Below are positions 16,473-21,752 of a DNA stretch of 30,701 nt, piece after piece; the first letter of the stretch is position 1; every line of letters starts with the position of its first letter. The position numbers and the translations under genes are program-made. The stretch is from NCBI GenBank assembly GCA_045599905.1, contig JAZRWX010000228.1, positions 1-30,701 of the forward strand, written 5' to 3'. A model generated the notes under the pieces. That model ran no database searches, had not been told where the DNA came from, and was given only the letters and a program-made list of their open reading frames with translations. The stretch is from Acutalibacteraceae bacterium (GTDB lineage Bacteria; Bacillota; Clostridia; Oscillospirales; Acutalibacteraceae).

Positions 16473-17951
16473 TTATAGTATTATACACACCAGACCGTTA
16501 CAACCCTCGTTAATTACACGCTCGATCGTTTCCTGAATTCTTCCGCGCGCATCGGCCGGCATTCGTGCCAATTTGGTGTGTAAACCTTCGTTGACCAGTT
16601 CATGCAGCGATTTTCCGAAAATATTTGAATCCCATATTTTTACAGGATCATCCTCAAATTGTTTCAACAAATATAAGATCAGGTCTTCCGACTGCTTTTC
16701 GCTTCCGACGATCGGTGTGACCTCGGTCGTGATGTCAGCACGCATCATATGTATTGACGGTGCGGACGCCCGCAAACGAACACCGTAGCGTCCGCCTTGC
16801 TTCATGATTTCCGGCTCATCCAAGGTTAATTCTTCAATTGATGGCATGACGATACCGTAACCGGTTGCTTCGACTTCATCCAGTGCGTTTTTGACGCGCC
16901 GATATTCTTTTTTAATCTGCGACAGATCGGTCATACATTCTAAAAGTTCCTGTTCATCTGCTATTTCCAACCCGGTTTTTTCGGCAAGAATTTTGAAAAA
17001 CAGCGTCGGTTGAAGTTTCAGTTCAATAACGGCACTTCCCTGCCCCAGATCAATGGAATATATACGTGCCTTTTCAACGTTTTCGCTGTCTGAAAACGCG
17101 CTTTCAAAACGACGGATATCACGGATGTGCCGAATATCTTGCACAATGCTGTGAATGCCGCCGGTCAAATCAGCGCGCAGCCAGTGGTCCAAAGATAAAG
17201 AATTCACCCAGCGCGGGAAACGGATTTGAATTTCATGCACGGGAAATTCAAACAAAATCTGTGCCAGTATTGCCCGAACGTCTTCTTCGGTCAGATCCAC
17301 ACAATTGATCGGCAAAACGGTTACGCCGTACTTTTCACCGATTTCATTCGCGGTTTTACGCGCTTCATCGGTATCCGGATCAATGCAGTTCAACAGGACG
17401 ATAAACGGTTTGTTCAATTCCTGCAATTCTCTGATGACACGTTCTTCGGCTTCGGCGTACTCCTCACGCGGAATATCACTGATACTGCCGTCTGTGGTAA
17501 TGACCAATCCGATAGTCGAATGCTCACGTATGACCTTTTCGGTACCGATTTCAGCCGCCATATTAAACGGGATCGGTTCACTGTGCCACGGCGTCATGAC
17601 CATTCGCGGCTGATCGTTTTCAATATACCCGAGTGCGCTCGGAACAATATAACCAACACAGTCGATCAACCGTACATTCATGGCGGCAGTCGGATCAATC
17701 ATGATCTGAACGCCTTTTTCGGGGACAAATTTCGGTTCAGTTGTCATGATCGTGCGACCGGATGAGGCCTGCGGCATTTCATCGCTGGCGCGCTCTTTCT
17801 GAAATTCCTGCGGAATATTCGGTAGTACCAGTTCCTCCATAAAACGTTTGATAAATGTTGATTTTCCCGTTCTGACCGGACCAACGACCCCAATATAGAT
17901 ATCACCGCCCGTTCGTGCGGAAATATCATGGTAAATGCTTGTATTTGTCAT
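16473..17951 (-). CDS. spoIVA: Stage IV sporulation protein A
   Basis: GGAGG RBS, ATG at 17951, 492 aa. IYIGVVGPVRTGKSTFIKRFM, TTEPKF, DCVGY and the C-terminal INEGCNGLVCIIL. Confidence 0.97.
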   Translation of the reverse strand: MTNTSIYHDISARTGGDIYIGVVGPVRTGKSTFIKRFMEELVLPNIPQEFQKERASDEMPQASSGRTIMTTEPKFVPEKGVQIMIDPTAAMNVRLIDCVGYIVPSALGYIENDQPRMVMTPWHSEPIPFNMAAEIGTEKVIREHSTIGLVITTDGSISDIPREEYAEAEERVIRELQELNKPFIVLLNCIDPDTDEARKTANEIGEKYGVTVLPINCVDLTEEDVRAILAQILFEFPVHEIQIRFPRWVNSLSLDHWLRADLTGGIHSIVQDIRHIRDIRRFESAFSDSENVEKARIYSIDLGQGSAVIELKLQPTLFFKILAEKTGLEIADEQELLECMTDLSQIKKEYRRVKNALDEVEATGYGIVMPSIEELTLDEPEIMKQGGRYGVRLRASAPSIHMMRADITTEVTPIVGSEKQSEDLILYLLKQFEDDPVKIWDSNIFGKSLHELVNEGLHTKLARMPADARGRIQETIERVINEGCNGLVCIIL

Positions 17952-17989
17952 AAACATTCCTCCGAAGACTGAATTATCATTCTGTTTCA

Positions 17990-18018
17990 AGAATATGAAG
18001 GTTCTGAATAGTTTATGA
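17990..18018 (-). promoter_or_regulatory. sigmaE-type promoter of spoIVA
   Basis: On the minus strand: TCATAAA, 14-bp spacer, CATATTCT, fitting (T/G)(A/C)ATA(A/T)(A/T)-N14-CATAnnnT. spoIVA is a known sigmaE target. Confidence 0.75.
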
Positions 18019-18019
18019 C

Positions 18020-18054
18020 AAAAAACGGATGGTACCGAATTACGATACCATCCG
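18020..18054 (-). terminator. Terminator of the class A PBP gene
   Basis: CGGATGGTA/TACCATCCG stem followed by TTTTTT on the minus strand. Confidence 0.8.
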
Positions 18055-18063
18055 CCGGTAGTA

Positions 18064-20679
18064 TTATTGAGTTGTTGCGGGCTGACCGGTCGTAGAATCG
18101 GTCGGCTGCTGGGTGTTACCGCCGTTATCACCAGTCGGGTTTTCGGCAGGAGCGGTGCTTTGAGGCGGCACGCTACTTGCCGGTGTTTCGGAAGGTGTTA
18201 CTGTGGACGGTGTATTATCGGTGGTAGATTGTGTACCGGATGAAGTTCCGCCGTTATTGGTATTAGAAGAATTCTTTGAATTGTTTTGCGAGGAATTGTT
18301 CTTCTTATCATTTGAATTCGGCTTACTGTCGGAAGCATCCGAAGAACCACCGCCGCAGCGGGTACATTTGGCAGGAACATTACTGGAACGGAACCAACCG
18401 AGTTCTTTTGAACAGCCGCTGCTTGCGATCAGACCGGAGGATTTACAGTAATATGCCTCCACAACGTCCGAACAATCTTCAAACTGTTTATTGCTCAAAT
18501 CAGAATGAACACTGCTCATGATCGTTCCCCAGAGTTTTTTGGCGATATTGGTATCGGGTATGCGTACTTTTTGATTGTTCGTGTTGTCATAACCGCACCA
18601 GCAGGATGCCACATAATACGGTGTACCGCCGCAGAACCAAAGGTCACACTCATCGTTGGTCGTACCGGTCTTACCGTATACGGCCATCTTCGGGAAATAT
18701 GATTTGATCATGGTCGCCGTACCGTTTTTCACGACGTTCTGTAACAAATGATTCATGACGTCGGCGGAATCCGGCGCAATAACGTAATGACCGCGCGCAT
18801 TTTCACGGTTCAGTATGACTTCACCTTTTTCATTTCGCAACGGCTCACCGTGTGAATTTAATACCTTTGTGTAGAAATGCGGTTCATAATAAAAACCGTG
18901 ATTGCCGAAAATGGCGTACGCCGCTGCTGATTCAAGTGTTGTCAAACCGCCGTTTGTACCGCCCATGCCCAAAGGTGCCAGGTTCAGATCTCCGTTGCCG
19001 CCCGGTGTCAGGGTCGTGAATCCAAGTGATTTTGTCATGAATTCATAACTGGTTTCCAGTCCCAGTTTTTCATCCAGCAATTTGACCGGAACGGTATTCA
19101 GCGACTGCTCCAAAGCATATTTAATGGAAACATTCGCACCGTGACCGCCCATATTGCCGTAGTTGGCAACACGCCATTCACCGTAGTTTTTGCTTAAATC
19201 CTGGATCAGCATCGAATAATAAATATCATTATTATCCATACATGCTGAATAGACCGACAACGGTTTAATAGAGGAACCCGGCTGACGTATCGCGGAAGTC
19301 GCGCGGTTGAAAGAACGGTTTACTTTTTTCTTTCCGATCCCGCCGACAATACCGCGAACATTGCCTTTGTAATCGACAATGGTCATTGCCGACTGCATTT
19401 TTGTTCCGTTACTGCCGACCAAACCGTAGGTGTTACGGTCTTTGTAAACCGCTTCCATTTTTGACTGGATTTCGGGATCGACCGTCGCGTAGATCTTATA
19501 ACCGCCATTATAAAGCATTCGGCTTGCGTATTTGGAATCCCAATCGTTTTCTTTCGCAAGTTGTTTTGTTATATCGTCGATCAGACCGTCGATAAAGTAA
19601 GAATTGACCGTATCGCCCGCAAGCATGGATTTTTTGCAAACGACCTTCAATTCTTCATCGCGCGCGGACTTATATTCCTCTTTCGTGATGTACCCTTGAT
19701 TGTACATTTCGGAAAGAACGGTATTGCGGCGTTTTAAGCTTTCTTCCTCGTTAAGGTCCGGTGAATACAAGGACGGATTCTTGGTAATGCCGGCGATCGT
19801 TGCGCATTCAGCCAATGTAAGATTATTGACTTTTTTATTAAAATAATAGTTTGCCGCGACCTGAACGCCCTTAATATTATGGCCAAGCGCGATCTGATTC
19901 AGATAGCATTCCATAATAACGTCTTTGGAATAATGCTCTTCCAGATAGCGCGCGTTCATGATTTCACGGATTTTGCGGCTCGCGTTCTGCTGATCGTCTA
20001 GCGTCAGGTTTTTGACCAACTGTTGTGTGACGGTGGAACCGCCCTGATTCGATGCGTAAAAATGCAGGAACATATTGGCGAACGCCGAAAATGTACGTTT
20101 CCAGTCAGTTCCCTGATGCTGATAAAAACGCTTGTCTTCGATCGCGACGACGGCGTTGACCATGTTCTGCGGAATACCACGGTATCCTTTTTCGTTTTTG
20201 GATGCCGCATTGTGATCATATTCGACCCAGATACAGTTATTGTCACCTTGCAGGCGTTTATATTCCTTATACCCGCCTTTCCCGTTATCGACGTATATGA
20301 TCGTCGTGAACAGGGCTTCAAGGTCATTCAGGTTGAATTCATCGACCGTAGTATCGACCATGGTGAAGAAATAAAGCAAAAACGCGCCGATAACAACGCT
20401 GAATGTAATAACGCCGACCAAAAATATAGACAGAATGGTCATCAACAACCGACGCTTGCGTTTTTGACGATGGTTCATTTTCTTTTCATTTTTTTCTGCG
20501 GCGGCAGATGAAAAACTGAAAAGATCCACGACTTCCCCATCCGAAACAGCGGACTGGTTCTGACTGCTTGAATCCGAAAAGAAATTCGGAATATCCAAAT
20601 TATCCGAACGTTGATCATTAGTACCGTAATCGTTCAGATCCTGCGATTCATCCTGCGGATATTCAAAAAATTCGGACAT
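18064..20679 (-). CDS. Class A penicillin-binding protein (PBP1A family, transglycosylase/transpeptidase)
   Basis: GGAGGTG RBS, ATG at 20679. GT51 motifs EDKRFYQHQG, GGSTVTQQLVKN, RKIRE. Transpeptidase SSIK, SLN, KTGT. One TM helix and a low-complexity C-terminal tail. Confidence 0.93.
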   Translation of the reverse strand: MSEFFEYPQDESQDLNDYGTNDQRSDNLDIPNFFSDSSSQNQSAVSDGEVVDLFSFSSAAAEKNEKKMNHRQKRKRRLLMTILSIFLVGVITFSVVIGAFLLYFFTMVDTTVDEFNLNDLEALFTTIIYVDNGKGGYKEYKRLQGDNNCIWVEYDHNAASKNEKGYRGIPQNMVNAVVAIEDKRFYQHQGTDWKRTFSAFANMFLHFYASNQGGSTVTQQLVKNLTLDDQQNASRKIREIMNARYLEEHYSKDVIMECYLNQIALGHNIKGVQVAANYYFNKKVNNLTLAECATIAGITKNPSLYSPDLNEEESLKRRNTVLSEMYNQGYITKEEYKSARDEELKVVCKKSMLAGDTVNSYFIDGLIDDITKQLAKENDWDSKYASRMLYNGGYKIYATVDPEIQSKMEAVYKDRNTYGLVGSNGTKMQSAMTIVDYKGNVRGIVGGIGKKKVNRSFNRATSAIRQPGSSIKPLSVYSACMDNNDIYYSMLIQDLSKNYGEWRVANYGNMGGHGANVSIKYALEQSLNTVPVKLLDEKLGLETSYEFMTKSLGFTTLTPGGNGDLNLAPLGMGGTNGGLTTLESAAAYAIFGNHGFYYEPHFYTKVLNSHGEPLRNEKGEVILNRENARGHYVIAPDSADVMNHLLQNVVKNGTATMIKSYFPKMAVYGKTGTTNDECDLWFCGGTPYYVASCWCGYDNTNNQKVRIPDTNIAKKLWGTIMSSVHSDLSNKQFEDCSDVVEAYYCKSSGLIASSGCSKELGWFRSSNVPAKCTRCGGGSSDASDSKPNSNDKKNNSSQNNSKNSSNTNNGGTSSGTQSTTDNTPSTVTPSETPASSVPPQSTAPAENPTGDNGGNTQQPTDSTTGQPATTQ

Positions 20680-20829
20680 TATAGCACCTCCGTATGTGAA
20701 ACGTAAAAATACCATTTTAGACTATTATACCATGATTTTCTTATTTGTTAAGTTACAATTTTTTTACCATTATATTTTTAGAAGAATATTATATAAATAA
20801 AAGCAAAAAATACCTTTGAGGTGTATGTT

Positions 20830-21120
20830 ATGCGTAAAAAAGTCATATATGGAATCGTGATCGGCTGTATGATCGCTTTCACGGTTTTCGGTATGGTTGA
20901 ATTTTTATCACTGATGCCCACGGTAAAAAAAGATCCGGTCTACCTTTTACAAATCAACGGCGGAACCGTACAATTGTTTGAAAACGGAACGCCGGTTAAA
21001 AATTATCCGGAAATCGTTATAGACAATCTGCCGTATGAAGACCGACGGAAACTTTCAAAAGGAATCGAATTTTCCAGTCGGCACGAAGCCGAACTTGCAA
21101 TTGAAGATTATGACGGATAA
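20830..21120 (+). CDS. Small membrane-anchored protein with a BofC C-terminal-like domain
   Basis: GAGGTG RBS then ATG at 20830. N-terminal TM helix and C-terminal IDNLPYEDRRKLSKGI...AIEDY, a pattern typical of clostridial BofC_C proteins. Confidence 0.65.
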   Translation: MRKKVIYGIVIGCMIAFTVFGMVEFLSLMPTVKKDPVYLLQINGGTVQLFENGTPVKNYPEIVIDNLPYEDRRKLSKGIEFSSRHEAELAIEDYDG

Positions 21121-21194: not shown

Positions 21195-21752
21195 ATGGAA
21201 AAAGATGCTGCTTCTGCCGGCGTAGCGCCGGTCGGTGGACTTTTCAGTACCGCTGAAATCAAAATTCTGATCTGCTATATCCTGACCGAATTGAATGAGC
21301 CTGTCCCGACCGACGGTATGGTCAATCTTTTGCACTATGAGGGAATCGCCAACGCTTTTGAAGTAAGTGATGCGTTCCATTCCCTCGAAAAAAGCGGTAT
21401 GATTTTTTCGCCCGAAAATGACGGCCGTTTCACCGTGACCGAACAAGGTAAATCCGTTCATGAAACATTGAAAGATTCTATACCGATCACCGTTAAAAAC
21501 CGTGCGTTAACGGCAACAAAAAAGATGTTGACCCGTAACCGTAACGCGGAGAATTCAGATATTTCCATTACCCACGAAGACGGAATGACCTACGTTACCT
21601 GCACCGCGCTGGATCGAAAAAAGCCGTTGTTAAGCATTAAAATGGTCGTTGTCGACGATGCGCAGGGACAGCGTATCAAGGATCGTTTTCTTGAAAATTC
21701 CACGGAAATATGTTCAACCGTCATTAATCTGTTGACGTGTGAAAGTGAATAA
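21195..21752 (+). CDS. DUF4364-family protein (winged-helix-like N-terminus)
   Basis: AAGGAG RBS. KILICYIL...EGIANAFEV and ITEQGK-like wHTH wing; the size fits the family as recalled. Confidence 0.7.
   Translation: MEKDAASAGVAPVGGLFSTAEIKILICYILTELNEPVPTDGMVNLLHYEGIANAFEVSDAFHSLEKSGMIFSPENDGRFTVTEQGKSVHETLKDSIPITVKNRALTATKKMLTRNRNAENSDISITHEDGMTYVTCTALDRKKPLLSIKMVVVDDAQGQRIKDRFLENSTEICSTVINLLTCESE

Follow-up and report, generated by a model that had tools for sequence, protein, structure and literature searches.

Two short-motif islands in the disordered cytoplasmic tail of a class A penicillin-binding protein from an Acutalibacteraceae bacterium

The window analysed here is a 30,701-nucleotide stretch of DNA from an Acutalibacteraceae bacterium (contig JAZRWX010000228.1 of assembly GCA_045599905.1), whose minus strand carries at 18064-20679 the gene for a class A penicillin-binding protein (PBP) of 871 amino acids, P0001, assigned from its open reading frame (ORF), its translation and its Pfam domains. 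An initial annotation of the window had drawn attention to the peptide LDIPNFF in the cytoplasmic tail of this protein and had proposed that the enzyme is recruited to the division site by molecular mimicry of the FtsZ C-terminal peptide, docking on SepF or FtsA. The islands in the tail appear to be real, selected short linear motifs in a disordered linker, with the one that the initial annotation listed third being the best conserved; it is the mimicry mechanism that did not hold up. Judged from orthologous tails, this tail has a two-part architecture of short motifs, and LDIPNFF is best read as the form that the distal one takes in the genus; its identity with the canonical Bacillus and Escherichia coli FtsZ core DIPxF[LF] is most probably a matter of coincidence or convergence.

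The PBP gene and its cytoplasmic tail

The listed ORF of P0001 begins at an upstream ATG at 20715, but a GGAGG ribosome-binding site at 20687-20691 (minus strand), separated by a spacer of 7 nt from the ATG at 20679, fixes the true start at the latter codon (MSEFFEY...), from which the gene runs to a stop codon ending at 18064. The two orthologous loci L121 and L122 have the same ribosome-binding site followed by an MS[ED][FL]FE start. P0001 is a class A PBP of the PBP1A type, with a GT51 domain, a transpeptidase domain and a single N-terminal anchor. The glycosyltransferase domain (Transgly, PF00912; residues 164-325, 19705-20190, minus strand; 3.7e-57, 193 bits) includes the GT51 motif EDxxFxxHxG as EDKRFYQHQG, and the transpeptidase domain (PF00905; residues 455-675, 18655-19317, minus strand; 4.7e-19, 69 bits) includes the motifs SxxK, SxN and KTG as SSIK, SLN and KTGT. 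A hydropathy scan and an AlphaFold2 helix place the single transmembrane (TM) anchor at about residues 78-108 (20356-20448, minus strand), and the Lys/Arg patch preceding this segment fits the positive-inside rule and a cytoplasmic N-terminus. At the other end of the protein, composition marks an extracellular low-complexity region rich in Ser, Thr, Asn and Pro at about residues 775-871 (18067-18357, minus strand), the last 102 residues including 19 Ser, 18 Thr, 14 Asn, 10 Gly and 10 Pro.

P0001 gave the single PF00912 match, and is the only Transgly-domain gene found, in the metagenome-assembled genome (MAG) from which the window derives (1.86 Mb in 334 contigs, 83% complete). A genome of the same genus (G090) has two class A PBP (aPBP) matches, at 52% and 47% identity to P0001, separated by about 7.6 kb on its contig C7, compared with the one aPBP of the MAG studied here. 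The source names of the homologs point to Clostridia and to Acutalibacteraceae.

The tail that precedes the TM helix is 76 residues long, in agreement with the acidic segment of about 75 residues described initially, and it has a net charge of -12 over residues 1-60 and of +6 over residues 61-76. AlphaFold2, run with a 20-sequence alignment, models residues 1-52 as coil devoid of secondary structure at a predicted local distance difference test score (pLDDT) of about 50; a helix spans residues 53-109, and this is confident (pLDDT 85-98) only from about residue 70. The basic end of the tail is a polybasic juxtamembrane stretch, KKMNHRQKRKRR, at residues 66-77 (20449-20484, minus strand), and a Lys/Arg-rich stretch before the TM segment is present in all homologous tails.

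Three islands interrupt this linker, all of them on the minus strand. LDIPNFF occupies residues 28-34 at 20578-20598, a placement and translation that we confirmed from the reverse complement of these positions (TTG GAT ATT CCG AAT TTC TTT); it is internal to the N-terminal tail, being followed directly by SDSSSQNQ, and overlaps the element NFFS (residues 32-35, 20575-20586), a match to the form [DEN]Φ[FY]S that is conserved across the family. The other two islands that had been named initially are likewise present. One, the proximal island VVDLFSFSS (residues 50-58, 20506-20532), corresponds to φ-D-L-N-S-F-S-S in relatives. The other, an acidic-aromatic MSEFFEY at the very N-terminus (residues 1-7, 20659-20679), recurs as MSEFFE in the homolog P0003 and as MSDLFEY at L121, and is not conserved across the wider clade.

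Conservation of the tail islands

Among the best 120 homologs of P0001 the tail could be delimited in 119, yielding 106 unique tail sequences. The proximal island is the most conserved tail element by this comparison, and probably the most important one: its form D-[LIVM]-x-x-[FYW] occurs in all 106 of these phylogenetically related tails, 17-36 residues before the TM segment, as FDLNSFSS in 49 tails, LDLNSFSS in 19 and VVDLFSFSS in P0001 itself. In our alignment (A1), D52 and L53 are invariant, S55, F56 and S57 are at least 90% conserved, and the remainder of the tail is unalignable.

The distal island lies a median of 19 residues upstream of the proximal one. A strict form, D[LIVM]xx[FYW], is found in 58 of the 106 tails, mostly as [KRN]DLFSYDN, and a relaxed form, [DEN][LIVMF][FY]S, is found upstream of the proximal island in 90. 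MAFFT aligns LDIPNFFSD of P0001 with the D[LI]FS[YF] columns of the distal island, whose relaxed core is fitted by NFFS, so that the slot held by LDIPNFF is occupied by D[LI]FS[YF] in the wider clade. Closer to P0001, the same slot reads IDVPNFF in P0003 (60% identity) and IDVLDFY at L121, the locus of P0002 (64% identity). Alignment of the orthologs thus divides the expectation that LDIPxFF would be a conserved island within a variable linker: the slot is kept and the exact motif is not. The Pro of the LDIP-type island occurs in two of the three genus-level sequences, D[IV]PxF was seen in those two sequences only, and the form DφxxF[FY] is kept in all three. On this alignment, the genus extends the family-level [DEN]Φ[FY]S island on its N-terminal side by LDIP, giving [LI]-D-[IV]-[PL]-[ND]-F-[FY].

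How much weight LDIPNFF can bear by itself depends on the rate at which such a word would arise by chance. Across all ORFs of at least 100 amino acids in the genome (765,356 residues), LDIPxF[FLMI] has one match, which is this tail, compared with expected counts from composition of 0.13 genome-wide and 1.4e-6 in the P0001 tail; the only other match to [LIVM]D[IV]PxF[FLMI] is MDIPEFL in a multi-pass membrane protein, and D[IV]PxF[FLMI] arises in 0.02% of 200,000 shuffles of the tail. Among 5.8 billion proteins, a word-based search with the tail recovered nothing but the query itself, and a PDB sequence search with the motif region returned no match. Considering the very many windows that are scanned in a study of this kind, the exact match to LDIPNFF is weak evidence when taken alone. 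The island is nevertheless more than a chance occurrence, because the two nearest relatives keep it inside an otherwise unalignable linker.

These data bear on the reading that, after the one we favour, survives best, namely that the LDIPNFF island has no specific function and is a drifting piece of a dispensable tail, noticed through a look-elsewhere coincidence, such that only the proximal island or the positive-inside patch matters. The uniqueness of the exact motif among 5.8 billion sequences and its genome-wide expectation of 0.13 agree with this reading, as do the loss of the Pro in the nearest relative, the absence of even a relaxed distal island from 16 of the 106 tails, the many aPBPs of the same family whose tails are short and purely basic, and the dispensability of the corresponding tail in Clostridioides difficile. 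What speaks against it is that the form [LI]-D-[IV]-x-x-F-[FY] is kept in three genus-level sequences despite unalignable flanking linkers, and that the distal acidic-Φ-[FY]-S element of the 90 tails stands at a roughly constant distance from the proximal island. We consider the absence of any specific function rather unlikely.

The nearest relative merits particular attention in this regard, since an in-frame stop severs its distal tail. At L121:1399-1510 an in-frame TAA splits the orthologous PBP tail into a 31-codon ORF that has its own GGAGG and ATG, encodes MSDLFEY...DIDVLDFYSDSSNQN and carries the distal island, and an annotated PBP that restarts at an ATG 6 nt past the stop and retains only the proximal island. 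Either the stop is genuine, a nonsense mutation followed by re-initiation, or the assembly is in error here.

Beyond this clade the tails are very variable, as seen both in clusters at no more than 50% identity and among 120 family genomes. Some of the more distant family members have tails that start with MRKTDINKY or MRKTDISRY, and some have islands of the DISSSS type. Among 107 diverse aPBP tails from the clusters, D[LIVM][NS]x[FYW] is found in 8 as compared with 0.43 in shuffles, and [DN][LIVM]SSxS in 6 as compared with 0.10 (about 58-fold), enrichments that overstate the independent support because the clusters are mutually related; D[IV]PxF is found in none of the 107. The [DN][LIVM]SSxS islands (DISSSS, NISSSS) occur up to three times per tail, in P0131, P0137, P0142, P0156, P0179 and P0231, and may be tail motifs of a second type or clustered phospho-acceptors.

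FtsZ tails and candidate partners

The FtsZ C-terminal peptide docks FtsA, ZipA, SepF, EzrA, MinC and SlmA. Its canonical core is DIPAFLR for the E. coli protein and DIPTFLR for that of Bacillus subtilis (bioRxiv 10.1101/459685), and residues 29-34 of P0001, DIPNFF, satisfy the form D-[IV]-P-x-F-[LF] of that core. The resemblance extends to context, as both are short acidic-aliphatic-aromatic peptides set in an acidic disordered linker. It does not extend to position: the PBP motif sits within an N-terminal tail, with about 43 residues between it and a TM helix, whereas that of FtsZ is a free C-terminal peptide with a basic tip.

A further comparison is with the FtsZ proteins of the organism and of its family. 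The genome has a single ftsZ gene at the start of a contig (L001:3-443), cut at its 5' end and complete at its 3' end, and the encoded tail ends in ...EEVISFFKKD (DMEEVISFFKKD; NDDDEDMEEVISFFKKD), which is not LDIPxFL. An FtsZ tail from the same genus ends in ...YDDVMKFFQK. Reading of the ftsZ loci (L006-L035 and L066-L109, in addition to L001) across 49 genomes gave a family tail of the form [FY]xD[IV][ML]x[IL]FN[RK]K that lacks Pro, exemplified by YDIMSIFNRK, with the consensus DIMSIFNRK; the subclade with DLNSFSS PBPs has DVLDIFNK. LDIPxFL is absent from the FtsZ tails of the genome itself and of all 48 relatives. From these sequences the FtsZ C-terminal peptide of the family is non-canonical.

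We then compared the two kinds of tail quantitatively by building a log-odds matrix of FtsZ tails, recording the best score in each PBP tail and setting the mean of these scores against the means obtained with column-permuted matrices, a permutation that retains the property of an acidic plus hydrophobic cluster. With the family FtsZ matrix the true mean was itself negative, and 457 of 1500 permutations attained it; when the P0001 tail was scored alone, 564 of 3000 permutations reached the true score. A matrix of the subclade FtsZ tails performed no better, its true score being reached by 490 of 2000 permutations. Because these tests show no order-specific similarity, there is no sequence-level mimicry of the FtsZ peptide of this lineage. 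In addition, the islands seen family-wide, DLNSFSS and DLFSYD, lack a second hydrophobic residue past the aromatic, a further departure from the FtsZ core. One weak lead is that Phe-Phe occurs within the genus in both the FtsZ tails (SFFK, KFFQ) and the distal islands of the PBP (NFFS, DFFS). Co-variation of the two was considered and set aside: the two same-genus genomes agree, but in three others (G072, G092 and G110) the PBP has Phe-Phe where the FtsZ tail has Ile-Phe or Met-Phe.

FtsA, one of the two docks that had been suggested, is not an available partner, because the FtsA-specific SHS2_FTSA domain was detected in none of 121 family genomes (99 of high quality), as against 8 of 14 control genomes, and because the two PF14450 matches in the genome (L003:1054-1995 and L004:1387-2406) are MreB/Mbl paralogs, scoring 462 and 331 bits against PF06723. 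As the gene is absent from the genomes searched, docking on FtsA is excluded.

SepF, in contrast to FtsA, is encoded (100 bits; L002:1450-1920, minus strand), within a neighbourhood that runs from sepF to divIVA, and, as in C. difficile, no other known membrane anchor of the Z-ring seems to be present. The N-terminal membrane-targeting region of this SepF, MGLFDKIKDIMSI..., contains DIMSI, the core of the family FtsZ tail (DIMSIF), an identity that is probably a coincidence. The genome, at 83% completeness, has one DivIVA-domain gene and no separate GpsB was found; it also has a 752-codon open frame with a Hanks-type kinase domain, the product of which is PrkC-like. There are two SEDS genes, two class B PBPs (bPBPs) and the one aPBP, with one SEDS/bPBP pair in a dcw-like context and the other beside mreC-like genes. 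By analogy, this layout resembles that of C. difficile and is compatible with an aPBP-centred divisome.

C. difficile offers the closest known system. Its aPBP PBP1 is the septal synthase (PMC10693644), in accordance with the statement of the initial annotation that a class A PBP drives septal synthesis there, and PBP1 septates without FtsW or FtsI (PMC10693644, PMC12539705, PMC13584725). Recruitment of PBP1 to mid-cell, or its activation there, needs SepF, which according to the authors contributes in a manner not yet known (PMC13584725). Deletion of the 46-residue cytosolic N-terminal disordered region of PBP1 harms neither growth nor division, and a 108-residue C-terminal disordered region has a minor role in morphology (PMC12539705). 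Like P0001, PBP1 is an aPBP of the Clostridia that has disordered regions at both ends, cytosolic at the N-terminus and extracellular at the C-terminus, the low-complexity C-terminal region of about 100 residues in P0001 being reminiscent of that of PBP1, and both organisms have SepF without FtsA and a small complement of SEDS proteins and bPBPs. The two differ in that C. difficile belongs to the Peptostreptococcaceae and the present genome is an Acutalibacteraceae-like MAG, and in that the PBP1 tail is 46 residues long and dispensable, compared with 76 residues in P0001.

With this background, mimicry of the FtsZ tail can be weighed in the one form left to it, in which the PBP islands would occupy the FtsZ-peptide pocket on the SepF dimer and recruit the aPBP to the Z-ring anchor. 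The fit of DIPNFF to the canonical core, the acidic disordered context, the presence of SepF without a detectable FtsA, the SepF dependence of C. difficile PBP1 and a gene set that fits an aPBP-centred divisome are all points in its favour, with the shared Phe-Phe as a weak addition. Opposed to them are the FtsZ peptide of the lineage, the permutation tests, the form of the family-wide islands, the Phe-Phe of PBPs whose FtsZ has none, the internal position of the motif and the fact that C. difficile PBP1 still supports division without its N-terminal disordered region. FtsZ mimicry by the PBP tail is not supported by these comparisons, and we regard even the SepF-limited version as improbable. 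The tail may yet bind SepF, since C. difficile PBP1 needs SepF for its recruitment, and in that sense SepF is a candidate.

Tail motifs that dock a cytosolic adaptor are already familiar from the PBP mini-domains bound by GpsB, which use the motif (S/T/N)-R-x-x-R-(R/K), and in Staphylococcus aureus the FtsZ C-terminus and the PBP4 tail have this motif in common (PMC11062636). The concept is the same, in that a bitopic PBP docks an adaptor through a short motif of its tail, a motif that FtsZ and a PBP can share, and the P0001 tail is also basic next to the membrane. Its islands, unlike the GpsB motif, are acidic-aromatic and not Arg-based; the strict motif is absent from P0001 and present in only 4 of the 106 homologous tails, and a GpsB-type motif was rejected on these grounds. 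Cytoplasmic mini-domain motifs of PBPs are thus known, and the acidic-aromatic two-part motif is a further variant.

As for the neighbours of the PBP gene, spoIVA lies directly downstream at 16473-18131 (minus strand), and its product matches each of the three SpoIVA Pfam domains, with the ATPase domain scoring 4.5e-115. Its ORF is listed from a GTG at 18131, which makes it overlap the 3' end of the PBP gene; the Pfam match does not set in until residue 61, however, and orthologs open with MTNTSIY..., so that the true start probably lies about 60 codons further on. The adjacency is confined to the genus-level clade (the window, L121 and L122) and is missing from 29 other family loci, and with no further support for it SpoIVA was dropped as a partner. 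Divergent from the PBP are a small gene at 20821-21120 (plus strand), whose BofC_C match is weak (E 9e-4) and falls short of the Pfam cut-off, and a DUF4364 gene at 21195-21752 (plus strand). Synteny with the PBP extends to about a dozen family genomes for the BofC-like gene and to four for the DUF4364 gene; L121 has both.

Function of the two-part motif

We propose that the cytoplasmic segment of this PBP is an intrinsically disordered acidic tail ending in a polybasic juxtamembrane patch, on which two short linear motifs would be under purifying selection: φ-D-L-x-S-F-S-S about 25 residues before the membrane, and acidic/Asn-Φ-[FY]-S about 20 residues further upstream. As to function, the two islands are most likely docking or regulatory peptides, a prediction from sequence in which our confidence is about even. 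In that role they would tether or tune the sole detected aPBP via a cytoplasmic and probably oligomeric partner, and the tandem arrangement of the motifs suggests avidity for it. SepF would be the leading candidate partner, being apparently the sole known membrane anchor of the Z-ring in this genome and being required for the recruitment of C. difficile PBP1; DivIVA or a PrkC-type kinase are alternatives. A more specific version, in which the conserved tandem acidic-aromatic motifs dock directly on SepF, at the FtsZ-tail pocket or at another surface, we consider doubtful.

A role in phosphorylation would account for the same islands in a different manner. In this reading the Ser-rich islands (SFSS and FFSDSSS in P0001, DISSSS in relatives) would be putative substrates or docking sites of a PrkC-type kinase and would tune the activity of the enzyme and not its localisation. 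The conserved Ser residues S55 and S57 flank the aromatic residue, the [DN][LIVM]SSxS form is enriched in diverse aPBP tails, and the genome contains the frame with a Hanks-type kinase domain. Hanks-type kinases usually favour Thr, however, and the islands are Ser-based; moreover, invariant D52 and L53 and near-invariant F56 typify a binding motif and not a phospho-acceptor. There is precedent in mycobacteria, where the cytoplasmic tail of PonA1 is phosphorylated by PknB such that elongation rate is modulated and localisation is unaffected (PMC4483258). PonA1 is comparable in having a long, poorly conserved aPBP tail that regulates activity and is not needed for localisation, and differs in that PknB phosphorylates Thr there, whereas the conserved Asp, Leu and Phe of P0001 look like a binding motif. 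We think it unlikely that phosphorylation is the principal role of the islands.

Several observations weigh against the view that the two islands are docking or regulatory peptides. The homologous tails are related by descent, and counts such as 106 of 106 overstate the independent support that they lend. If the TAA at L121 is real, the distal island is not essential. Under laboratory conditions C. difficile grows and divides without the N-terminal disordered region of PBP1 (PMC12539705), and by analogy the roles of such tails may be only subtle ones. Lastly, a scan of the genome with a position-specific scoring matrix (PSSM), together with a regular-expression scan restricted to tails, found the islands in a comparable tail of this PBP only, the PSSM returning one unrelated 17-bit match inside a probable folded region. 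With the motif on no other protein of the genome in such a setting, a shared-hub signature of the kind that would favour a docking role is lacking.

FtsZ mimicry by a PBP would be striking, but it fails the computational checks, and the finding that takes its place is modest and mostly descriptive. In a large clade of uncultured gut Clostridia it defines φDLNSFSS and [DEN]Φ[FY]S on the aPBP, a two-part motif that gives assays with SepF, DivIVA and the PrkC kinase a definite peptide to start from. The question on which it bears is how Clostridia without FtsA bring aPBPs to the division site or control them there. If true, docking on SepF would physically connect the anchor of the Z-ring to an aPBP acting as septal synthase in a clostridial family that lacks FtsA, and would supply a mechanism for a connection between SepF and aPBPs that has so far been implied only genetically in C. 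difficile.

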